A DNA stretch of 64,000 nt, taken from the NCBI GenBank assembly GCA_023246655.1, contig JAHFHX010000003.1, positions 24,875-88,874 of the forward strand, written 5' to 3'. The position numbers were made by a program, and so were the translations under genes. This document shows positions 1,906 to 30,898 of the stretch, one piece after another (positions within the stretch are counted from its first letter, which is position 1; every line of letters begins with the position of its first letter). The stretch is from Candidatus Magasanikiibacteriota bacterium. Lineage in GTDB: Bacteria; Patescibacteriota; Patescibacteriia; Magasanikbacterales; GWA2-37-8. The notes beneath the pieces were generated by a model, which searched no databases, was not told the DNA's origin, and saw nothing but the letters and a program-made list of their open reading frames with translations.

Positions 1906-3792
1906 ATGAATCCTATGATCGAGGAACGCCCCCACTTCTCCGAGCATGTCTTGGGAGAAAAAAAACCTAAAAAAATTACTCCCCGACAACGACGTCGCAT
2001 CAAAACTCCTGCGAACCAATTGGCAGTTGCTAACCCAAAAATTGATGAATGCCTCACGAGCATTTACCAGGATGAACGCGGGGCAATTCCCGATATGCGC
2101 ACCATTGCCGTTAAAAAAGAACACCGCATTGGTAACTTTTTTCTTCGTCTGATATGTATCAGTGTAGTCTGCTCCGCCCTCGGCTGGATACTTTGGTATT
2201 ATTGGCCTCAATTACTGCGCCACTCAGAAAACCAAGCAACCTTAACTATTGTGGGGCCAGATCACCCACCCATTGGGCAAAGCAGCACCTATACGTTAAG
2301 CTATGAAAATAGAGAAAAAATTGACTTACACGATGTGCTATTACAACTCCATCCTGCGGCTGGTTTTATAATTGACTATAGTTCTCTTACCGCAAATAAT
2401 GATAAAAAAACTGAATGGACCATTGGAATTCTTCCGGCCAAAGGTAGCGGCACGCTCACCATCACTGGCCGGCAATTTGGCACTCCTCATCAAGCTGCTT
2501 CATGGCGCGCCGCCCTCAAATATCAATCAGAAAAAATAACTTCCTTTCTTGAAGAAGAAACCTCACTGCCAATCACCCTCGGCCCCGCCCCGGTTACTCT
2601 CACCATCTCCGGCCCCGCCCAAAATACCCTAGGTTCAGCAGTTACCTACACCTTCCAAGTAGCTGCCAAGGGTGGGTGGCCGCGTGAACCACTGGAAATA
2701 GTCCCTGAGTTTCCGGTTAATTTTTCCCTCTCATCGAGCTCACCGGCTCTTACTAAAAATCACTGGATTATTCCTACCCCCTCGTCCACTACTCCTTTCA
2801 ACGTAGTCATTACCGGGCAATGGCACGACAGCACCACAACCGAACCCATTATCCGAGCGGGGCTCTTTTGGAGTGTGCCGAGTACAACAAAAAATTTCTT
2901 AGTAGAAAAGTCTGAATTTAAAAGTGAAGTAATTAAAAATGATATTAATCTATCAATTGCGATTAATGGAACCACCACTGATTTTGATAGCAAGCCAGGT
3001 GACCTGATTAATACTACTTTTCAACTCCAAAACAACAGTGGTCACGAAATTAAAAATGCCATCCTCGGACTGAGTTTTGAAGCTCCCGCCCTTAAACGCC
3101 AAAGTCTTCTTAACTGGCCGGAAATCACCAACCCCGCTGATGCTGATATTCAAGGTGAACAATTGAGCGATACGCGACGTCGCGGCACACTTACCTGGTC
3201 TTCCAAACATCTCCCTGCCTTAGCGCAACTACCTTCGGGGAAGGAGGCAAGCCTTGATATACGTTTACCAATTCGTGATAGTAAAAATTTCGCTCTTGAA
3301 TCGGTTCGTGATACAACTATTACTGTTCGGGGCACAGCTACCTTTAGTGACCAAACGGGAACTCACACTATTCTCAGTAACCCCATTACCATCACGGTTA
3401 ATTCCGATCTTACCTTTGAACAACGCTCGGCTGTTTCCGTCACTCCGGAAGGTAAAAAACGATTCGCGATAAGCTGGATACTAAACAACACCTTCCACGC
3501 GCTTAAAAATATTGATCTCTCGGCCACGCTCTACGGAGACATCAACTGGGAAGCAAACGGCGACGTTTCTTCAGGAGTTCTTACTTATGACGCTGCCGCA
3601 AAAAAGCTCACCTGGCATATTGCCGAATTGCCCACCACCGTGGATGTTGCCAGCGCCCCGTTTACGGTAAGTCTAAACAGCAACAACCCTACCCAGAGCT
3701 TACTCATCTCAAAAATTCGAATCCAGGCGGACGATACCGTCACAGGTAAAAAAATAGAACTTCTGGGGGACGAAGTTCCTTTGAATAAATAA
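1906..3792 (+). CDS. hypothetical membrane-anchored extracytoplasmic protein (628 aa)
   Basis: Basic N-terminus (KKPKKITPRQRRRIK), then one hydrophobic helix (FFLRLICISVVCSALGWILWYYW), then a long Thr/Ser-rich domain. Ends with TAA. Confidence 0.7.
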   Translation: MNPMIEERPHFSEHVLGEKKPKKITPRQRRRIKTPANQLAVANPKIDECLTSIYQDERGAIPDMRTIAVKKEHRIGNFFLRLICISVVCSALGWILWYYWPQLLRHSENQATLTIVGPDHPPIGQSSTYTLSYENREKIDLHDVLLQLHPAAGFIIDYSSLTANNDKKTEWTIGILPAKGSGTLTITGRQFGTPHQAASWRAALKYQSEKITSFLEEETSLPITLGPAPVTLTISGPAQNTLGSAVTYTFQVAAKGGWPREPLEIVPEFPVNFSLSSSSPALTKNHWIIPTPSSTTPFNVVITGQWHDSTTTEPIIRAGLFWSVPSTTKNFLVEKSEFKSEVIKNDINLSIAINGTTTDFDSKPGDLINTTFQLQNNSGHEIKNAILGLSFEAPALKRQSLLNWPEITNPADADIQGEQLSDTRRRGTLTWSSKHLPALAQLPSGKEASLDIRLPIRDSKNFALESVRDTTITVRGTATFSDQTGTHTILSNPITITVNSDLTFEQRSAVSVTPEGKKRFAISWILNNTFHALKNIDLSATLYGDINWEANGDVSSGVLTYDAAAKKLTWHIAELPTTVDVASAPFTVSLNSNNPTQSLLISKIRIQADDTVTGKKIELLGDEVPLNK

Positions 3793-3988: not shown

Positions 3989-4933
3989 TCATTTTTCCTG
4001 CAAAAATTTCTCTATTAAACCAACGGCGGTTACAATATCATCTCCCTCAATCCAATTGATTCGCTTGTCCCGTTTAAACCAGGTTATTTGACGTTTGGCA
4101 TACTGCCGGGTGGCAACTTGTATGGCGCGCACTGCTTCTGCCTTGGTACATTCCCCGCGCACATAGCTCCCCATCTGCTGGTATCCAATACTACTCATAC
4201 TCGGAAGATCCCAACCATATTGTTCTTGCACTAATCGTTTTGTTTCCTCATCCAACCCTTGTGCTATTTGTTCCTCAACCCGGCGATTAATTCGCGCCAA
4301 GAGTTTTTCCCAAGGCCAATGAATACCAATTTGGAGTGTATTAAATAACGGTGCCCCTACTCGCCGCTGCTCTATAAAGGATTTCCCCGTTATCATAGCT
4401 ACTTCCAACGCCCGCAATACCCGTCGAGGATTATGGCGGTCAATTGCCTGGTAACTCTCTGGATCACAGTGCTGCAGCAATTGTTGCAATTCAGCTAACG
4501 ATTTCTGCTCCAAACTCGCCCGCAGCGCCTGGCTGGGAGCGACGGCCGGAATAATAAGATTATCTATAAGCGCCCACAGATACTGCCCCGTTCCTCCCAC
4601 CACAATCGGCAATTTTCCGCGCGCTTGAATAGCATAGAGGCACCCAACAGCTAGCTCCTTAAACTGGGCCACACTCATTTGCTCCTTTGGATCAATGATA
4701 TCCATAAGGTAATGCGGTATACCCTTAACTACATATACCTTACTGCCACCCACCAATTGCCACTCACCAAAAGGCTTAGCCGTTCCAATATTCATTTTTG
4801 TATACACCTGCCGCGAATCAGCCGATACCACTTCACCATTAAACCGCTGGGCAAGCTTAATGCCCAATTCAGTCTTTCCCGAGGCAGTAGGGCCAAGGAG
4901 AATGATAATTTTTGACTTTTTAAAATTTTCCAT
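3989..4933 (-). CDS. miaA: tRNA dimethylallyltransferase
   Basis: Begins IILLGPTASGKTELGIKLAQRFNGEVVSADSRQVY (P-loop plus the MiaA N-terminal signature). 314 aa, ends with TGA. Confidence 0.9.
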   Translation of the reverse strand: MENFKKSKIIILLGPTASGKTELGIKLAQRFNGEVVSADSRQVYTKMNIGTAKPFGEWQLVGGSKVYVVKGIPHYLMDIIDPKEQMSVAQFKELAVGCLYAIQARGKLPIVVGGTGQYLWALIDNLIIPAVAPSQALRASLEQKSLAELQQLLQHCDPESYQAIDRHNPRRVLRALEVAMITGKSFIEQRRVGAPLFNTLQIGIHWPWEKLLARINRRVEEQIAQGLDEETKRLVQEQYGWDLPSMSSIGYQQMGSYVRGECTKAEAVRAIQVATRQYAKRQITWFKRDKRINWIEGDDIVTAVGLIEKFLQEK

Positions 4934-5068: not shown

Positions 5069-5353
5069 ATGTTAGCTAAATTTGCTGTTGAGTATCTACC
5101 CTACAGCACGCGGTCCCTGCCGCACGTAAATATTAATTTTACTACTATGTCAAAAGAACAAACTATTTCCGATCCAAATAAAGGAATAAAAGAATTTATT
5201 TCAATTGAAGGCAGACCGATTCCTGGGGTTGATTTTGTTCCTGATGATTTGATAGATACGAATGCAATGGGTAATGAACTTGTTAAGGAGATTGAAGAAG
5301 AAGAGCGGGCTAAAGCTGCAAAGGAAGGGCAAGCACAAGACCATGCCGCCTAA
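5069..5353 (+). CDS. small acidic hypothetical protein; an alternative start at 5147 (MSKEQ) gives 68 aa
   Basis: ORF directly downstream of the canonical promoter. Glu/Asp-rich C-terminus. Confidence 0.5.
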   Translation: MLAKFAVEYLPYSTRSLPHVNINFTTMSKEQTISDPNKGIKEFISIEGRPIPGVDFVPDDLIDTNAMGNELVKEIEEEERAKAAKEGQAQDHAA

Positions 5354-5407
5354 AACTACCTCACCTCTTAAGGTAAATCTCTAACTTTAATCTTAAAAAA
5401 TAATTTT

Positions 5408-5746
5408 ATGCCAGAAGAACTACCACGGATTTATGATCTTCCCAATGCGGAAGAAGCTTCTTTCCAAGACATCTCTGAAACAATTACTTCGGTAGAAGAC
5501 CTAGAAACTCGTGTAGGAATTTCTAAAACTGAAGTAACACCAGAACTAGGTAATTTGCTTCAAGGACTGATCGTCCTAGCCAATAAACGAAATAAGCTTA
5601 CAGCTAAAGCGAAGGGTTCCCGAGAAGTAGCAAGCGAGTTCGTAGACAAACGGAATGCGGCTTTTGTCGAACTCAGTAAATTAGTGGGATACGAAAGAGC
5701 CGGCAAAATTGATAAGGCTCTTTTCTCCGCCAAACAGAAAGAATAA
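5408..5746 (+). CDS. small acidic hypothetical protein (112 aa)
   Basis: Same strand as, and tandem with, the neighbouring small ORFs. Confidence 0.5.
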   Translation: MPEELPRIYDLPNAEEASFQDISETITSVEDLETRVGISKTEVTPELGNLLQGLIVLANKRNKLTAKAKGSREVASEFVDKRNAAFVELSKLVGYERAGKIDKALFSAKQKE

Positions 5747-6062: not shown

Positions 6063-7829
6063 TTACTTTCGAGTGGCGATTTCGGTACGTACTTTGGCAA
6101 TAAACTCCTCTTTTGTTATCTTCAACTGCTCCTCCTGCCCCCGCACCCGAATGGTCCAGTCTCCGCCGTCGAGTTCTCTATCCCCTATTACTACAATATA
6201 GGGGATTTTTTGTTTAGCAGCGTTCCTCACTTTTTTGCCAATGGACTCATCAGCATCATCCACCGCCACCCGAATTCCAGCGGCCTCAAATTGTTTGGCA
6301 AGGGTGTGAGTTTGGGCAGCGTGTTTCTCGGAGACTGCCGCGAGCAGAACGTGAACCGGAGATAACCATACCGGAAGGTTGCCGGCTGTGTGTTCAATCA
6401 AAACGCCCATAAATCGTTCTACGGAACCAAGCACCGCCACATGAATCATAACCGGGCGTTCATCTACCCCTGCTGCATTCGTAAAATTCAATTTAAAACG
6501 CTCGGGTTGGTTCATATCAAGCTGAATAGTAGCGAGCTGCCATTCCCGACCAAGGGAATCCACACCCATAAAATCAAGCTTAGGACCATAAAAAGCGGCT
6601 TCGCCCACGCCCACGGAATAATCTTGGCCAGCCTGTTTTACAATATCAGCCAAATTCTGCTCGGCCTCATTCCACATTTCTGGCGTCCCTAAATATTTTT
6701 GCATATTGGCAGGGTCGTGCGTGGATAAACGCACTCTCAATTCCATCCCAATAGTTTTATACAATGTTGTAATAATCTCGTAAGCAACTCCAACCTCTTG
6801 TTTAATCTGATCACGCCGACAAAACACATGGGAATCGTCTTGGGTAATGGAACGCACGCGCGTCAACCCCTGGAGCTGGCCTGTGTTTTCGTCACGATAA
6901 ATGGTGGTGGTTTCAAAATATCTAACCGGCATCTCCCGATAACTCCGGCCGCGCGCAGCAAATAACTGAATATGATGTGGGCAATTCATGGGTTTAAGCA
7001 CAAATTGCGTCTCGGTCTTTTTGCTTTTTACATGAAATAGGTCGTCTTCAAATTTATCCCAATGACCAGACGTTTTATATAAATCATTCTTGGCAATATG
7101 TGGTATCCATACCCGCTCAAATTTTTTCGCCAAACGAAGTTCAGCAATAAAATTTTCAAGTTCACGCCGCACCATGGTACCCTTGGGGGTAAAGAGTGGG
7201 AGCCCGGAACCAACGAGCTCAGAAAATACAAATAAATCTAATTCCGCTCCAATCTTACGATGGTCCCGCTTCTTAGCTTCCTCCAGCATATGCAAGTAAT
7301 CCTTAAGTTCTTGCTGAGAGGGGAAACAGGTCCCGTAAATTCGGGTGAGCATTTTATTTTTTTCATTCCCTCGCCAATAGGCGCCCGCAACGGAAAGAAG
7401 CTTAAAATGTTTAATTTCGTCTTTCGGGTGTGCTAAATGACCACCTTTGCACAAATCGAGAAATGATCCCTGTTTGGTCTCGGTAATCGTTTTCCCCTGC
7501 ACCGCGAATTCATCAATCAGCTCTAGCTTGTAAGGATTCCATGAAAAATCTTTTTTGGCTTGCTCTACCGGAACCTCTTGAATAGTAAAATTATCCCACG
7601 TTTTTAAAATTTCGCGCATTTTGTTTTCTATTCTTTCAAAATCGGCTTCAGAAATTTTTACGTCCCCCATGTCAAAATCCTGATAAAAACCACTTTCGAT
7701 GGAGGGGCCAATAGCGTTTTGTGCATTGGGCCAGATGCTTCTAACCGCAGCAGCAAGAAGATGCGCGCAGGAATGACGTAAGTTATCGAGATATTGTTGA
7801 TCCATATAGAAATAATTAACAATTATCAA
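6063..7829 (-). CDS. thrS: threonine--tRNA ligase, lacking the N-terminal TGS domain
   Basis: HSCAHLLAAA editing-domain motif, RDHRKIGAELDLF, class II synthetase core and a C-terminal anticodon-binding domain. 588 aa. Confidence 0.9.
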   Translation of the reverse strand: MIIVNYFYMDQQYLDNLRHSCAHLLAAAVRSIWPNAQNAIGPSIESGFYQDFDMGDVKISEADFERIENKMREILKTWDNFTIQEVPVEQAKKDFSWNPYKLELIDEFAVQGKTITETKQGSFLDLCKGGHLAHPKDEIKHFKLLSVAGAYWRGNEKNKMLTRIYGTCFPSQQELKDYLHMLEEAKKRDHRKIGAELDLFVFSELVGSGLPLFTPKGTMVRRELENFIAELRLAKKFERVWIPHIAKNDLYKTSGHWDKFEDDLFHVKSKKTETQFVLKPMNCPHHIQLFAARGRSYREMPVRYFETTTIYRDENTGQLQGLTRVRSITQDDSHVFCRRDQIKQEVGVAYEIITTLYKTIGMELRVRLSTHDPANMQKYLGTPEMWNEAEQNLADIVKQAGQDYSVGVGEAAFYGPKLDFMGVDSLGREWQLATIQLDMNQPERFKLNFTNAAGVDERPVMIHVAVLGSVERFMGVLIEHTAGNLPVWLSPVHVLLAAVSEKHAAQTHTLAKQFEAAGIRVAVDDADESIGKKVRNAAKQKIPYIVVIGDRELDGGDWTIRVRGQEEQLKITKEEFIAKVRTEIATRK

Positions 7830-12374: not shown

Positions 12375-14234
12375 TTAGACGCCATCTATCACCATCTTCT
12401 GAGGAGCAGGGCCCAGGAGAGCAATAATTTCATCTTGTTCAATCGTTTCTTTCTCCAAGAGCGCCTTTACGAGTATCTCGAGCTTCTCCCGATGTGTGTC
12501 AATCGTCTTTTTAGCTACCGCTTGCGCCTCTTCAATAAGGCGTTTCATTTCCTTATCAATTTCTTCGGCGGTTTTATCACTGTAATCGCGCTCTTCATGA
12601 ATCTCCCGACCTAAAAAGACTAGCTCCTCATGCTCGCCAAAGGTGCGAGGACCGAGCACAGTACTCATGCCATAACGGGTTACCATATCGCGAGCCAATC
12701 GCGTAGCGTTTTTCAAATCATTGGACGGACCAGTGGAAACCTGATTATCACCAAAAATTATTTTTTCCACCACATAACCACCAAGGGCCATTGCCAAATC
12801 ATCGGTAAACTGCGCTAAAGTGTGATAATGCTTGTCTTCGCTCGGCATTTTAAGAGTATAACCACCGGCTTGACCACGAGAAATAATAGAAACCTTGCGT
12901 ACTGGATCACAATTGGGCAGCATATACCCCACAATCGCATGGCCAGCTTCATGATACGCAGTCATCTTTTTGTCACGCTCAGTCATCACGCGACTTTTAC
13001 GCTCTGGCCCCAAAAGCACTTTCTCGATACTCTCTAAAACTTCACGCTCACCAACTTCGGTGCGTCCACGCCGAACAGCCAAAATGGCCGCTTCATTCAT
13101 AAGGTTGGCTAAATCGGCTCCAGAAAATCCGGGAGTACGCTCGGCAATCTTGCGAATATTTACCTCGGAAGCTAGCTTTTTGCCCTGGGCATGAATTGCC
13201 AAAATTTCCTCACGATCTTTAATATCTGGCATATCAATGACGACACGCCGATCAAACCGCCCGGGACGCAGTAACGCCGGATCGAGCACATCCGGACGAT
13301 TAGTAGCCGCCATAACAATCACACCAAGATTAGCCTCAAAGCCGTCCATCTCAACCAGAATTTGGTTAAGGGTTTGTTCGCGTTCATCGTGCCCACCACC
13401 AAGACCAGCCCCCCGCCGACGCCCCACCGCATCAATTTCATCTACAAAAACAATCGCCGGTGCTGCTTTCTTGGCTTTGGCGAATAAATCACGAACCCGT
13501 GAAGCCCCAACCCCAACAAACATCTCAACAAATTCTGAACCGCTCATGTGAAAAAAAGGAACATTAGCTTCACCAGCAACCGCCTTGGCTAAAAGGGTTT
13601 TGCCGGTCCCGGGCGACCCCATCAATAACACCCCTTTCGGGATCTTTGCCCCCATCTCCACAAATTTCTTTTGATCACGAAGAAAATCAACAACTTCTAC
13701 CAACTCTTCTTTAGCTTCTTTCGCCCCCGCCACATCGGCAAAGGTCTTGCGATCTTTATCTTCTGGTTTTACTTGACGCGGATTGCTCTGCCCAAAGCCC
13801 ATTGCTCGATTATTCATTCCTTGCACGCCGCGACTCATGAAATAGAAAAAAGCCATGATGATAATGAGGGGCAAAATTGCTGGAAGCAAATTAAATGCCC
13901 ACAGCTTCCAAGAACTTTCTTCTTGAACTTCTACGTTGAGCTGTTTACGCGCTTCATCGCTGACACCATAATTTTTTATAATGTCACCAAACGATTCTTG
14001 TGGTTCTTTCTTCACTTCCTGGCTTTTCGCCGCCTCTTCTTTCAGCTCAATCTTTAAAGTATCGCCTTGAACAATTATATTTTTTACCTGACCAGCATTT
14101 ATCTCCTCAACCATGCGGCCAACACCAATAACTTCTGGTTTAGCGCCTCCATGGCCCTTCACCAGACCCAAGGCCCCTGCAACCAAAAATAATACCAAGA
14201 AAATAATTAAAAAATTTTTAATAAAATGTCGCAT
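12375..14234 (-). CDS. ftsH: ATP-dependent zinc metalloprotease FtsH
   Basis: AAA Walker [24 protein letters not shown], and the zinc site HEAGHAIVG. Confidence 0.95.
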
Positions 14235-20890: not shown

Positions 20891-22828
20891 TTAAAGAACT
20901 TCTTTCACCTTCTTTACAATCGCCTGTGCATCAATCTCTCCATACGCCAGCAGTTCATCCGGCTTCCCGCTCTTCGGCATCTTCCGCACCGCCAATCGAT
21001 GGATTGAGACTGAAGATTGAATATTGAAGATTGAAAATTCCGTGACGGCCGTCGCTACCACCTCACCAATACCACCCTCCGCGTAATGATCTTCAACAGT
21101 CACAATCGCTTTTGTTTCGTGCACTGCTTTTTCAAGAGTCGCCGCATCAATTGGTTTAATACTATAAAGATCAACCACACGAATACTAATTCCTTCTTTC
21201 TGCAAAACATCGTACGCCTTTAATGCCTCAATCAATGTCACCCCAGCGCCAATCACCGTCACTACATCCTGCCCGCTACTCTTGAGCGTCTTACTTCCAC
21301 CAATTGGAAACTTTTCATCGACACTATACAAAATCGGCGATTCTTTACGCGTGGTGCGAATATACACATTTCCCATATGCTCAGCCGCCGCTTCCACCAA
21401 CCTCTCGGTTGAAACAGCGTCCGATGGATATAAAACCACACTCCCAAAAATTGATCGAAACATCCCTAAATCTTCCAAAGCCATTTGGGACGCGCCGTCT
21501 TCGCCAATTGAGACGCCGGCGTGCGAACCAACGAATTTAATATTGGGGTTGGAATACTGGCTCATTCTAATTTGATCAAACGCCCGCGAAAAAAACGCGG
21601 CAAAGGTCGATACAAACGGAATTTTCCCGCGCCGCGAAAACCCTAAAGCCGTTCCCACCATATTCTGCTCCGCAATATACATCTCAAAAAACCGCTCCGG
21701 GTATTTTCCCTTAAAAAATTCCGCATACGTGGAATTGCTTACCTCCGCGTCCAACACCACCATATTCGGTATCGCCGATGCGAGCCTAACCAAGGCGTTT
21801 CCATATGCCTTCCGCGTAGCAACCGGTTTATCACTTGGATAATTGAAATTTGGTGTTTGGAACTTGTTTGGAACTTGGTCATTGAGATTTGGGGTTGTTA
21901 CTTTCTCGGGCAAAGCTACCGTACCAACTAATGTTTTATCTACCGACCCCAATTCCACCAATGCCTTCTCCAACTCCTCCCGAGAAAGTGCTTTGCCGTG
22001 CCAATTATCTTTATCTTCGATAAACGACACACCTTTACCCTTCAAAGTCTTCGCGATAATCATCACTGGTCTATTTCTATATTTCTCTATTTCTTTATTT
22101 CCAATCGCTTTCTCATACGCCTCCGCAATCTCCTCCACATTATGCCCATCAATAACAATTGTCTTCCAGCCAAACGCTTCGGCCTTTTTCTGATACACTT
22201 CCAGCTCATGTCCGTACATCGTCTCCCCCCGTTGCCCCAAACGATTCACATCAATGATCGCAATTAGATTATCTAATTTATAATGTTCGGCGCAGGCCAT
22301 TGCTTCCCACACACTTCCTTCGGCCATTTCGCTATCCCCCAACAGCACCCAAGTGCGGTACGGCAATTTGTCGAGCTTGGCATTCAGTGCCATCCCAACG
22401 CCGATGGAAAGCCCCTGCCCCAAGGACCCAGTGGCCGCCTCGGTATACGGAAACGCCATTGTGGGGTGACCCTCCAGGCGGCTCCCAAATTTCCGCAAGC
22501 TAAGCATTTCTTCCTCGGATACTTTTCCCGCCGCCGCGTAAATCGAATAAAATAACGGCGAGGCATGGCCTTTAGAAAAAATTAATCGATCATTGTTTGG
22601 AAATTCGGGATGATCCAAATCAGCGCGGAAAAATGGACCACCCCCGCCAGAGGCGGGTCCGCCTGTGGCGAAAAACATGAGTATGGTCATTAAATCTGCC
22701 GCGGAAAGTGATGATGTTGGGTGCCCTGATCCAGCCGCAGTGGTGGAAACAAGACTATAATAACGAATGAGCTTGGCGAGTTGTTGGAGACGTTCGTGGT
22801 TGGTCATAAATAAATAATGATTAAACAC
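20891..22828 (-). CDS. tkt: transketolase
   Basis: Thiamine-diphosphate-binding N-terminus (GSGHPTSSLSAADLM), then the pyrimidine-binding domain, then the C-terminal domain. 645 aa. Confidence 0.9.
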   Translation of the reverse strand: MFNHYLFMTNHERLQQLAKLIRYYSLVSTTAAGSGHPTSSLSAADLMTILMFFATGGPASGGGGPFFRADLDHPEFPNNDRLIFSKGHASPLFYSIYAAAGKVSEEEMLSLRKFGSRLEGHPTMAFPYTEAATGSLGQGLSIGVGMALNAKLDKLPYRTWVLLGDSEMAEGSVWEAMACAEHYKLDNLIAIIDVNRLGQRGETMYGHELEVYQKKAEAFGWKTIVIDGHNVEEIAEAYEKAIGNKEIEKYRNRPVMIIAKTLKGKGVSFIEDKDNWHGKALSREELEKALVELGSVDKTLVGTVALPEKVTTPNLNDQVPNKFQTPNFNYPSDKPVATRKAYGNALVRLASAIPNMVVLDAEVSNSTYAEFFKGKYPERFFEMYIAEQNMVGTALGFSRRGKIPFVSTFAAFFSRAFDQIRMSQYSNPNIKFVGSHAGVSIGEDGASQMALEDLGMFRSIFGSVVLYPSDAVSTERLVEAAAEHMGNVYIRTTRKESPILYSVDEKFPIGGSKTLKSSGQDVVTVIGAGVTLIEALKAYDVLQKEGISIRVVDLYSIKPIDAATLEKAVHETKAIVTVEDHYAEGGIGEVVATAVTEFSIFNIQSSVSIHRLAVRKMPKSGKPDELLAYGEIDAQAIVKKVKEVL

Positions 22829-28656: not shown

Positions 28657-28747
28657 AGTCCGTAAAGTCAAAAGTTTGTAAAGTCCGTAAAGTGACGCTT
28701 GACCAACATTTTACAGACTTTATGGACTTTTGACTTTATAAACTTTC
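28657..28747. repeat. repeat module upstream of tRNA-Lys: agtccgtaaagtcaaaagtttgtaaagtccgtaaagt, then an inverted GACTTTAYR block
   Basis: A 37-bp block is duplicated exactly at 28840-28876. The two halves of the module form a quasi-palindrome. Confidence 0.8.
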
Positions 28748-28758
28748 TACTAATCACT

Positions 28759-28831
28759 GGATCGGTAGCTCAGCTGGTAGAGCAGGGGCCTCTTAAGCCC
28801 AAGGTCCCGGGTTCGATCCCCGGCCGATCCA
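28759..28831 (+). tRNA. tRNA-Lys, anticodon CTT
   Basis: Cloverleaf folded by hand. Acceptor ggatcgg / ccgatcc, D-arm gctcagctggtagagc, anticodon loop ctCTTaa, T-arm ccgggttcgatccccgg. Confidence 0.85.
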
Positions 28832-28839
28832 CTAATGAT

Positions 28840-28930
28840 AGTCCGTAAAGTCAAAAGTTTGTAAAGTCCGTAAAGTCACAATGCGTTAAAACTTTATGAC
28901 TTTATGACTTTCGACTTTATGGACTTTTTT
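28840..28930. repeat. second copy of the repeat module, upstream of tRNA-Arg
   Basis: The 37-bp direct repeat of 28657-28693, then actttatgactttatgactttcgactttatggacttt. Confidence 0.8.
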
Positions 28931-28988: not shown

Positions 28989-29060
28989 GCTCCCGTAGTT
29001 CAATGGATAGAATATTAGGCTTCGAACCTAAAGATAGGGGTTCGATTCCCTTCGGGAGCA
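28989..29060 (+). tRNA. tRNA-Arg, anticodon TCG
   Basis: Cloverleaf folded by hand. Acceptor gctcccg / cgggagc, anticodon stem ttagg / cctaa, anticodon loop ctTCGaa, T-loop ttcgatt. Confidence 0.7.
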
Positions 29061-29309
29061 CTGGCGATAGCAAGATTAGCAAACAGTATGAACAAACAAT
29101 TCTTGACCTGTGCATAACTTTGTTTGACTCTATTTATCTTTTTTTTATTTCCCTATATACTAATTAATAGGTCGAGGAAAATTTTTTACATCAATGCTTG
29201 TCATGTAAAAAGTTACTTCCAAAATTTTTTCTCGCGTTCGCGAGGTTAGAAAAAATTTGTATCTCTAACGCAACTCTTGAGCGTTAGGTCAAGACAGGAG
29301 GTGTTAAGT

Positions 29310-29387
29310 ATGATGAAGAAAAAAAAGATGGGTGGTAAGAAGAAAATGGCCAAAAAGAAAATGGCCAAAAAGAAAAAGAAGCGATAG
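29310..29387 (+). CDS. lysine-rich micro-protein, 25 aa (MMKKKKMGGKKKMAKKKMAKKKKKR)
   Basis: AGGAGG at 29296-29301, 8 nt upstream of the ATG. The TAG stop is followed by a strong terminator. Confidence 0.55.
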   Translation: MMKKKKMGGKKKMAKKKMAKKKKKR

Positions 29388-29395
29388 TGCTGAAT

Positions 29396-29430
29396 AAAAA
29401 ATCCCCGAATATGACGGGGATTTTTATTTT
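29396..29430. terminator. bidirectional rho-independent terminator
   Basis: Stem atccccg / cggggat with a 7-nt loop. Flanked by AAAAAA upstream and TTTTTATTTT downstream, so it can terminate both the micro-ORF and the convergent PHP gene. Confidence 0.75.
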
Positions 29431-29506: not shown

Positions 29507-30898
29507 TCATTCAAACAACTGCGATTGTTTTGGTTTGCCCACCTTGGCATCGGGAAAAGGATCAACGACCCCATACTGGCCATCAAACCCAGGCACAATC
29601 TTTACCTTACCAACGCGCATATTCTGTATCCCAAGGGCAATATTTTTATCACTCACCGCCCGTTCAATTTCGGGTAAAGGAGAATGAAGTAAGATATTAA
29701 ATTCACTCCCTACCGCCGGTACGAGCCTTCGATATTCTATCTCTACCTTTTTACTTTTCTTCCCAGTCTCAAAACTTGCCGCGATAATCTCACGAAGAGG
29801 AACGATGTGGCGGTGAGGAATAAATTTTTCTAGTAGAATATCTTTCTCCAGGCGATCCGCCAAATCGTCCACGCGGTACAACACGCCGACCGTGAGTTTC
29901 TTCTTGCATACTGGGCAAATTTCTTTGTTTCGTTTGGTTTCAGCAGGAGTAGAGGAGAACTTACACTCTCTGTGACCGTCAAAATGATACATACCTTCTT
30001 CCGGATAAAATTCAATTGTATACAAAAACTTCTTTCGGTCACCCGTTTTTAAAATTCGGCGAATCTCGCCATACGTAATCTCAGTCTCAAACTGAAACAC
30101 ATTCGCCTCACGCCCTAAATTGTCCAGGCTATGCGCGTCAGAATTAGACACTAACACAATTTTATCAAGCTGGCTAAGCCGCCGGTTCATCGGTGGGTCA
30201 CTCGATAGCCCCGTCTCAATTGCAAAAATATGAGGTGTTAATTCTTCAAAACATTCTTCTAATGAATTATAGCCTGACTTTGAGCCAAACACTGCAAACC
30301 ATGGTGTCCAGGCGTGAGCGGGAATAACCATCATCCGCTCATCAAGCTCTAAACATATTTGGAGAACCTCCTTCCCCGAAAGTCCAATAATCGGTCGCCC
30401 ATCAGCCTTCAAGTTCGCCCCGCGATTTTCTAATTCCTCATTAAACCGTTTGGCAACTTCCAAACTCGGCGCAAAAATAAGTAAATGCAACCGCCTCACC
30501 TTATCCTTGTGTTTGTAAATACAAGAAATTTCCGTACCAAAAATAAATCTCACCGGCGTTGTCATTCCGAGCACATTCGGCAAGCTCAGTGTAAACTCCG
30601 TCGAGGAATCCATTTCACCCAAACGACCAAGGGATTTCTCCACTCCGCTTCGCCCTGTACCATACGGTACTGGGCTTCGCTCTGGTCGAAATGATAATTG
30701 ATAAGTGCCCGTCTTTCCAATCTCCACCAGATTCTCTTCCAGATGTTCCATCCACTTTGGATGCGTAAAATCCCCTGTGGCCACGAGTTGTATCCCTTTT
30801 TCCTGACAGGCTTTCACAATCTGCGGAATCTCAAGCAAAGGCGAGCAGGCTCGCGCATATTTAGAGTGGATGTGAAAATCAGCGATGATCTCGATCAT
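29507..30898 (-). CDS. PHP-domain protein of the TIGR00375 / EndoQ-like family, carrying an in-frame repeat insertion
   Basis: N-terminal PHP motif DFHIHSKYARACSP, and a C-terminal zinc ribbon CPVCKKKL. Extra segment RPERSPVPYGTGRSGVEKSLGRLGEMDSSTEFTLSLPNVLGMTTP. Confidence 0.55.
   Translation of the reverse strand: MIEIIADFHIHSKYARACSPLLEIPQIVKACQEKGIQLVATGDFTHPKWMEHLEENLVEIGKTGTYQLSFRPERSPVPYGTGRSGVEKSLGRLGEMDSSTEFTLSLPNVLGMTTPVRFIFGTEISCIYKHKDKVRRLHLLIFAPSLEVAKRFNEELENRGANLKADGRPIIGLSGKEVLQICLELDERMMVIPAHAWTPWFAVFGSKSGYNSLEECFEELTPHIFAIETGLSSDPPMNRRLSQLDKIVLVSNSDAHSLDNLGREANVFQFETEITYGEIRRILKTGDRKKFLYTIEFYPEEGMYHFDGHRECKFSSTPAETKRNKEICPVCKKKLTVGVLYRVDDLADRLEKDILLEKFIPHRHIVPLREIIAASFETGKKSKKVEIEYRRLVPAVGSEFNILLHSPLPEIERAVSDKNIALGIQNMRVGKVKIVPGFDGQYGVVDPFPDAKVGKPKQSQLFE
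30561..30697. repeat. family A-type palindromic element inserted in frame inside the PHP-domain gene
   Basis: Sequence tgtcattccgagcacattcggcaagctc...ggcttcgctctggtcgaaatgata, the same subtype as the intergenic copy at 30910-31005. Confidence 0.7.

Follow-up and report, generated by a model that had tools for sequence, protein, structure and literature searches.

A conserved lysine-rich micro-gene and its structured leader RNA in Patescibacteria

Results

A lysine-rich micro-ORF in its own transcription unit

The gene described here is a 25-codon open reading frame (ORF), 15/25 codons of which specify lysine, in a 64,000-nucleotide (nt) stretch of contig JAHFHX010000003.1 (positions 24,875 to 88,874, forward strand) from a Candidatus Magasanikiibacteriota bacterium, a member of the Patescibacteria; this whole stretch is referred to below as the window. 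The micro-ORF is preceded by a structured leader and followed by an intrinsic terminator, which lies between it and a convergent gene ending at 29507, encoding a homologue of endonuclease Q (EndoQ), and is common to both (Table 1). The region 29156–29425 appears to comprise a single monocistronic and strongly expressed unit, consisting of a −10 box, a leader, a near-perfect Shine-Dalgarno (SD) sequence, the ORF and the terminator.

Table 1. Features of the micro-gene, its leader RNA and its surroundings in the window.
Feature	Position	Strand	Evidence or remark
Lysine-rich micro-gene, 25 codons + TAG, MMKKKKMGGKKKMAKKKMAKKKKKR	29310..29387	+	Reading frame and syntenic orthologues
Shine-Dalgarno sequence AGGAGGTG	29296..29303	+	AGGAGG at 29296–29301; 8 nt ahead of ATG
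In-frame tandem repeat, 15-nt unit AAGAAAATGGCCAAA (KKMAK) ×2.5, 100% identity	29340..29376	+	Repeat analysis
Bidirectional intrinsic terminator, hairpin AAAAATCCCCGAATATGACGGGGATTTTT	29397..29425	both	A/T runs on either side
Putative −10 promoter box TATACT	29156..29161	+	Aligned with TATAAT/TATACT of relatives; start of transcription inferred
GGTCGA, at the presumed 5′ terminus of the transcript	29170..29175	+	Conserved motif
Leader hairpin 1, 12-bp A/U-rich stem, 11-nt loop CAAUGCUUGUC (29192–29202)	29180..29214	+	Covariation, covariance model
Leader hairpin 2, U6, CUCGC-GUUC-GCGAG, bulge, A6; palindrome TTTTTTCTCGCGTTCGCGAGGTTAGAAAAAA	29225..29255	+	Kept in nearest clade (alignment A3)
Leader hairpin 3, CUAACGC, 9 nt, GCGUUAG, ending 8 nt ahead of SD	29265..29287	+	In minimum-free-energy fold of the window
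tRNA-Lys(CTT)	28759..28832	+	Context
tRNA-Arg(TCG)	28989..29061	+	Context
Convergent EndoQ homologue, synteny anchor	29507..30898	−	PDB 5zb8 (PfuEndoQ), E = 7.7e-49

Both the translation signals and the composition of the micro-ORF set it apart within the window. AGGAGG followed by ATG at a distance of 5–10 nt is found at only two places in the 64 kb; the one outside the micro-gene opens an ORF of 4 codons. ATG-initiated ORFs of ≥15 amino acids (aa) with ≥50% lysine plus arginine likewise number two, the second being a 20-aa ORF (22087–22149, minus strand) that barely reaches 50%, and no other ORF or ORF segment of the window has a comparable lysine content. AAG accounts for 8/15 of the lysine codons, compared with 35% in the window's long ORFs. 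A longer, 36-aa form starting from TTG at 29277 was considered and rejected: the conserved SD falls inside it, and the 8-nt spacing indicates initiation at the ATG. The +1 frame overlapping the micro-ORF (29317–29397) codes for a strongly basic sequence as well (RKKRWVVRRKWPKRKWPKRK...), and the product of a frameshift would thus remain polycationic.

The locus had first been singled out in an annotation made from the sequence of the window alone (the original prediction), and most of what that annotation described is present as claimed: the 25-codon lysine-rich ORF, the best SD of the window (the only AGGAGG at this spacing ahead of a real ORF) and the strong bidirectional terminator after it. 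The palindrome reported upstream is real, is kept in the nearest clade and corresponds to leader hairpin 2, although it had been drawn one base too long, ending at 29256. The micro-ORF had also been placed directly downstream of tRNA-Lys and tRNA-Arg genes; it is near these transfer RNA (tRNA) genes and on the same strand, but 248 nt separate tRNA-Arg from the ORF start.

Conservation at a syntenic position across Patescibacteria

With the EndoQ homologue as anchor protein, 160 loci (given L numbers here) were fetched, 80 from reference genomes and 80 from metagenomes. Named records were all from Patescibacteria; Magasanikbacteria predominated, with Falkow-, Uhr-, Buchanan- and Staskawiczbacteria also represented, and some automatic labels were plainly wrong. 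Anchor protein identity to the window was 46–61%, and neither the genome nor the metagenome collection contained a close relative of the window, the best showing approximately 60% identity in this protein. Loci were counted where at least 400 nt were available beyond the EndoQ stop codon (137 loci), and a lysine/arginine-rich ORF was sought within 900 nt.

Of these 137 loci, at least 90 had an ORF rich in lysine, alanine, arginine, valine and proline at the syntenic place, nearly always convergent with the EndoQ gene, and further orthologues below threshold were spotted by eye (L104, L049 and L110). Similar ORFs were very rare elsewhere in the approximately 1.1 Mb of DNA fetched. The recurrence of an equivalent ORF at the same syntenic position in so many loci argues that it is not a chance reading frame. 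Orthologues varied in length from about 15 to 143 aa (median approximately 35 aa; a few automatic calls reached 149 aa from an upstream ATG), typically beginning MAK, MPA or MAA and ending in lysine or arginine. The expression signals recurred with them: GG(A/G)GGTG preceded 63/94 orthologues, with a modal spacing between SD and ATG of 8 nt, the same as in the window, and a hairpin followed by a U run lay after 86/94.

Two other kinds of small basic ORF were encountered. One, which L018 and L027 have in the corresponding place (…RAKPxYLRT…), was rejected as a family member and is what we take to be the C-terminus of ribosomal protein bL19. The other contains cysteines and lies upstream of the main lysine-rich ORF in L101 (~4715, minus strand; MACKKKPAKKTCKPKKKNCKSKK) and L102 (~2716, minus strand; MPKKKKLAKKKSAKKKKTGCGRCCK).

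Selection on the reading frame

The pooled composition of the orthologues was 50% lysine, 22% alanine, 8% arginine, 7% valine and 6% proline. All four synonymous codons of the GCN, GTN, CCN and ACN boxes (alanine, valine, proline and threonine) were in use, as would be expected if constraint acted on the protein rather than on the nucleotide sequence. Repeat periods in the orthologues were 15, 30, 45 and 129 nt, each divisible by three; L004 contains VAKKK ×8.8 with a 15-nt period, and the periods of L024 are multiples of 15 nt.

The order of lysine codons was also far from random. Longest A runs summed over 52 genes came to 336, compared with 435±9.9 in 1000 within-gene shuffles of synonymous lysine codons, none of which gave as low a value; this is a large effect, although relatedness among the genes prevents its translation into a clean probability. 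No gene of the family contained an A run longer than 8 nt. The order of AAA and AAG codons therefore avoids slippery poly(A) tracks, the opposite of what characterises a sliding or stalling device.

Expression of a peptide from the ORF is very probable because SD, spacing, start codon, frame and terminator have all been kept over deep divergence. On these sequence comparisons we have little doubt that the micro-ORF is a real, translated and conserved gene.

A conserved hairpin in the leader RNA

Alignment of upstream regions revealed a leader of approximately 140 nt with three hairpins, an architecture common to the window and 48 loci. A TATAAT or TATACT box is always found 7–9 nt ahead of (A)GGTCGA and upstream of hairpin 1, and GGTCGA follows the −10 box in approximately 40 leader-bearing loci as well as in some loci without hairpin 1.

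Hairpin 1 is the best conserved element. The core of its loop, AUGCUUGU, was invariant in 42/43 aligned leaders, while the stem showed covariation: over 43 distinct sequences, pairing was retained in 92.4% of cells, compared with 76% in column shuffles and approximately 50% when the partner was slid, and 9/12 pairs had changed on both sides. G-U pairs were common and A-C almost absent, indicating a structure in the sense-strand RNA rather than a DNA operator. The covariance model derived from this alignment (R1) matched the window at 29172–29223 with 61.7 bits, and the window and 48 loci each contained exactly one strong match (45–69 bits), always on the strand of the ORF, antisense scores being 21–36 bits. 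The model found no second copy of hairpin 1 in the window; a candidate with one mismatch in the loop, at 12826, was rejected, being in a coding region and without a stem.

The other two hairpins were more variable. In the clade of the window, hairpin 2 consists of a U run, CUCGC-GNUC-GCGAG and an A run; in a second clade it takes the form UUGGUGUGUACCAUGGUCAUAUCAA, with some covariation (alignment A2), surrounded by an outer helix that differs in each lineage. Leaders with the UUGGUGUGUACCAUGGUCAUAUCAA hairpin (L019–L046, L061 and L090–L135; A2 columns 62–86) have an invariant palindrome, CCAUGG, in the loop, which is self-complementary and could permit RNA dimerisation. Hairpin 3 has kept its position in relatives, with unrelated sequence. 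Leader and ORF of the window together folded at −62.8 kcal/mol (z = −3.0), better than 200/200 shuffles. Conserved pairing of the hairpin 1 loop with the SD or start region was not found by inspection. In Rfam 15, searched with the window and 15 loci, only tRNAs reached gathering score, and nothing relevant matched the leaders at E ≤ 10 or E ≤ 1.

The ORF and hairpin 1 are associated but separable

When leaders were located by the RNA model alone, a lysine-rich ORF followed in 46/49 (41 pairs called automatically from SD, ATG and ORF; five read by eye, in L006, L026, L028, L044 and L090). Conversely, in approximately 40 remoter loci the ORF lies behind an ordinary TTGACA/TATAAT promoter without hairpin 1.

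The loop also turns up on other stems. In L049 (~6120–6160), L075 (1711–1756) and L110 (1569–1616), all on the minus strand, the ORF's own terminator carries a (C)GAUGCUUGUCG loop on a G+C-rich stem unrelated to that of leader hairpin 1. Hairpins with the AUGCUUGU loop, again with unrelated stems, were present with no lysine-rich ORF nearby in L062 (~1263, minus strand), L065 (~8448, minus strand) and L050 (~5706, plus strand); at least those of L062 and L065 stand shortly after promoter-like sequences, and in L062 a terminator-like hairpin then follows. Recurrence of an 8-nt loop on differing stems at either end of a messenger RNA (mRNA) is far beyond chance, and implies that the loop has a conserved reader.

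Genomic neighbourhood

The EndoQ homologue that served as anchor is a 463-aa protein with an additional N-terminal segment of approximately 125 aa outside the coverage of the archaeal structures; it had no Pfam match at 1e-5, and its score against NCBIfam TIGR00375 was under the cut-off. Neighbours in the window also include L32, NusB and RNase III, and in general the lysine-rich gene is often found among genes for tRNAs, ribosomal RNA (rRNA) and ribosomal proteins. In 16 loci the 3′ part of 23S rRNA, recognised by its sarcin-ricin loop motif, is found upstream of the EndoQ gene in the same orientation, so that in those lineages the lysine-rich gene adjoins the rRNA operon (rRNA-adjacent loci include L016, L029, L036, L045, L066, L078, L079, L098, L109, L112, L124, L125, L137 and L150).

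The original prediction had looked to conservation both of the micro-ORF and of its place after tRNA-Lys. The first was found, as described above; the second was seen in the nearest relatives only, remoter loci having tRNA-Ile, tRNA-Arg(CCG), tRNA-Ala or no tRNA nearby. The link with tRNA-Lys is thus a matter of local synteny.

An imperfect palindrome of approximately 90 nt, with TAAAGTC/GACTTTA units, lies ahead of each of the two tRNA genes of the window (28657–28746 and 28840–28927). The two share a 40-nt direct repeat of 98% identity (28657–28696 and 28840–28879) and have 32-nt inverted arms with 84% complementarity; they may be a promoter, an operator or a processing structure.

Database searches

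Neither the 25-aa nor the 36-aa form matched any Pfam or NCBIfam model at E ≤ 10, and no ribosomal family (bS22, bL37, bTHX, bL36, bL34 or eL41) was matched at this level. A homology search with a 56-aa orthologue gave no match at E ≤ 0.01. Long orthologues scored 10–17 bits against HC2 (PF07382), below its gathering threshold of 40, and orthologues scored 8–13 bits against the NCBIfam H1-like models, below cut-offs of 80 (NF038053) and 135 (NF038052). The kind of repeat seen in HC2, namely lysine-rich pentamers of varying copy number, is itself present (KKMAK ×2.5 in the window; L004; L024).

A 137-aa member of the family was compared with 5.8 billion proteins (E ≤ 10). The matches were compositional analogues, comprising basic tails on BlaI/MecI, SWIB, DksA and RHH proteins together with HC2, and also a ‘histone H1-like repetitive region-containing protein’; among the matches listed there was no free-standing micro-protein from Patescibacteria. 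Exact look-up of 23 family sequences, including members of 110–143 aa, found none in approximately 15 billion sequences, although annotation from other start codons is possible. Searches of the literature on lysine-rich small proteins of Patescibacteria, H1-like proteins, polyamines, ribosome structures of bacteria from the candidate phyla radiation (CPR) and the loop sequence found no prior description. Lysine/alanine-rich H1-like proteins are known in bacteria; what is new is the free-standing, ultra-short form, widespread in Patescibacteria, and the conserved RNA hairpin, without a match in Rfam, on a polylysine mRNA.

Discussion

On balance we consider it probable that the micro-gene encodes a disordered polycation that binds nucleic acids, at a dose set through its leader. 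The peptide of the window would be a short representative of a family that extends across Patescibacteria and consists of intrinsically disordered polycations; their lysine-rich units resemble pentamers (KKKxA, KRKPA, KKVAK), and the number of units may drift by in-frame repeat slippage. Such a peptide would act electrostatically, as a counter-ion and compactor of nucleic acids, with nucleoid DNA as the first candidate target and rRNA or ribosomes as the second, and might thus represent a free-standing version of the C-terminal tail of histone H1, of Hc2, or of the basic tails of bacterial DNA-binding proteins. The leader, and chiefly hairpin 1 with its AUGCUUGU loop, could provide a handle by which a conserved factor sets the stability or translation of a potentially toxic product. 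We infer both the binding and this role of the leader. Among the roles put forward in the original prediction, that of a nucleic-acid-binding polycation fits best, judging from lysine-rich pentamers that vary as in Hc2 and from analogues that are tails of DNA-binding proteins.

The family shares with chlamydial Hc2 (hctB; PF07382) a lysine/alanine-rich, very basic and low-complexity sequence in which pentamers vary in-frame in number. In Hc2 the number of these pentamers, and with it the length of the protein, differs from strain to strain through in-frame repeat changes, and the protein is a DNA binder (PMC2848022). Hc2 also condenses DNA. It is much longer (165–237 aa, compared with 25 aa in the window and a family median of approximately 35 aa) and belongs to another phylum, and the leader hairpin is not known from Chlamydia. 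Expression of Hc2 has to be tightly controlled, and the related Hc1 is restrained by a small RNA. A second point of comparison is provided by H1-like tails, as in Pseudomonas AlgP, Burkholderia NF038053, the C-terminal tail of mycobacterial HupB, Streptomyces DdbA and the lysine-rich tails of BlaI, SWIB and DksA proteins, which have repeats of the KPAA, AKKA and KRKPA types like those of the micro-gene family, and bind polyanions non-specifically; AlgP, for example, associates with the nucleoid and with polyphosphate granules (PMC9239181). These tails are fused to folded domains or exceed 150 aa, whereas in the micro-gene the tail is the whole protein.

In the organisation of the unit, a parallel can be drawn with genes of the cspA type, which encode small, abundant proteins that bind nucleic acids; these genes are monocistronic, have a long, conserved and structured 5′ leader with a conserved 5′-proximal element, are strongly signalled for translation and end in a terminator. 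The likeness is one of outline (a monocistronic unit, a leader of approximately 140–160 nt, a 5′ conserved element and a terminator), as there is no relation in sequence or structure and no Rfam match. That the leader of the micro-gene might mediate thermosensing or autoregulation is purely a conjecture.

Several observations weigh against a nucleic-acid-binding polycation with a dose-setting leader. At 25 residues, and 15–16 in the shortest members, the peptides may lack the length needed for bridging or compacting DNA in the manner of Hc2. A CPR-specific, alanine/lysine-rich tail of approximately 25 aa occurs on uS19 of Parcubacteria (PMC9297842), and this tail, together with the tRNA, rRNA and ribosomal protein neighbours, makes a ribosomal target equally compatible. 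The similarity to H1-like proteins is compositional and lies far under the cut-offs, and E-values cannot be relied on where sequence is of low complexity. Moreover, a peptide as hypervariable as this cannot itself account for an invariant hairpin loop, and in three loci (L034, ~5340–5431; L081, ~4280–4360; L084, ~3040–3156; all minus strand) the −10 box, hairpin 1 with AUGCUUGU and terminator are present at the syntenic place behind the EndoQ gene without any ORF, so that the function of the hairpin may be unrelated to the peptide.

The alternative that survives best, though we hold it to be doubtful, is a ribosome-associated polycation, a very small and loosely bound ribosomal peptide or assembly helper that neutralises rRNA in reduced ribosomes, like eL41, bS22, bL37 or the uS19 tail, with hairpin 1 as an autoregulatory mimic of an rRNA site. 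The peptide is close to eL41 and bL37 in size and charge, and the group as a whole (with bS22, bTHX and the uS19 C-terminal tail) is characterised by 24–35 aa, more than half of them lysine or arginine, and by high expression. The very strong SD, structured leaders being typical of ribosomal protein operons, and the proximity of tRNA genes, L32, NusB and RNase III in the window and of the 23S 3′ end in 16 loci are all in keeping with such a role, as is the reduced equipment of CPR bacteria, which are without several ribosomal proteins and approximately half of the factors that usually serve ribosome biogenesis (PMC12641178). However, every known ribosomal protein has a fixed fold or site, and the small ones a fixed length and conserved sequence, whereas the family ranges from about 15 to 143 aa with free drift of its repeats and matches no ribosomal model; nor was any AUGCUUGU mimic present in the 23S rRNA 3′ parts checked (11 of the 16 loci containing them).

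It is highly unlikely that the functional product is a small regulatory RNA centred on the hairpin with the AUGCUUGU loop, with a purine-rich ORF that is incidental or a ribosome-loading or stabilising appendage and a peptide that has no function of its own. The three ORF-less units consisting of hairpin and terminator, the promoter-proximal hairpins with the same loop far from any lysine-rich ORF (L062, L065 and L050) and the placing of the hairpin at the 5′ end of some mRNAs and the 3′ end of others would fit such an RNA. Against this, frame, start codon, SD spacing, in-frame repeats and avoidance of A runs are all maintained, and a purely non-coding RNA is improbable because conservation of the ORF reaches far outside the loci that have the hairpin. 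The possibility, raised in the original prediction, that SD and terminator belong to a non-coding RNA is therefore right in that a conserved RNA hairpin lies on the same transcript, but the hairpin accompanies the ORF and does not replace it.

An exported or injected polycation, acting as an antimicrobial or as a host-directed, cell-penetrating peptide by which an epibiont would target its host or competitors, is very improbable. Peptides resembling poly-lysine do act on membranes and penetrate cells, and Patescibacteria live mostly as epibionts, but neither the peptide nor its monocistronic unit has a signal peptide or other export signal, an amphipathic or hydrophobic face, or a linked processing, immunity or transporter gene. 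Hydrophobic content is low (alanine, valine and methionine amount to approximately 31%, mostly alanine), and the nearest analogues are intracellular DNA-binding proteins; the antimicrobial-like role suggested in the original prediction thus found no positive evidence. Scarcely credible, finally, is a regulatory leader peptide (a lysine-codon attenuator sensing Lys-tRNA, or the poly(A) sliding or stalling device of the original prediction, serving a downstream gene or the tRNA cluster), for although lysine codons are abundant, a terminator follows at once, tRNA-Lys is nearby and weak sub-threshold Rfam matches to leader families exist, those matches (Leu/Phe/His-type) are confined to the terminator hairpin at 15–26 bits against cut-offs of 47–65, there is no conserved antiterminator pairing or alternative terminator, the link to tRNA-Lys is not conserved, ORF length varies tenfold, A runs are actively avoided, and the arrangement of the genes already contradicts it, the next gene being convergent in the window and nearly all loci, with nothing co-directional downstream to attenuate.

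A bolder version of the nucleic-acid-binding polycation, which we regard as unlikely, would make the family a tunable ‘genetic polyamine or protamine’, a free poly-lysine/alanine peptide whose length evolves through repeat slippage and whose mRNA is tagged at its 5′ or 3′ end by the AUGCUUGU hairpin, which would also exist as a stand-alone mini-RNA. A factor reading the hairpin might then couple polycation output to the nucleic-acid or charge state of the cell, amounting to RNA-controlled charge homeostasis of chromatin or ribosomes.

Low-complexity micro-ORFs with a strong SD, of the kind discarded by gene callers and homology tools, can be conserved genes, and this polylysine gene is absent from the annotation resources searched (exact look-ups, Pfam and NCBIfam). 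Hairpin 1 is a well-supported structured RNA motif outside Rfam, and offers a handle for finding its reader. If made at the level that its signals suggest, the peptide would rank with the most abundant molecules of the cell. The cells of Patescibacteria are very small and their DNA is densely packed, their ribosomes are reduced and they have little capacity for biosynthesis; a gene-encoded polycation is a concrete candidate for the neutralisation and compaction of their nucleic acids.

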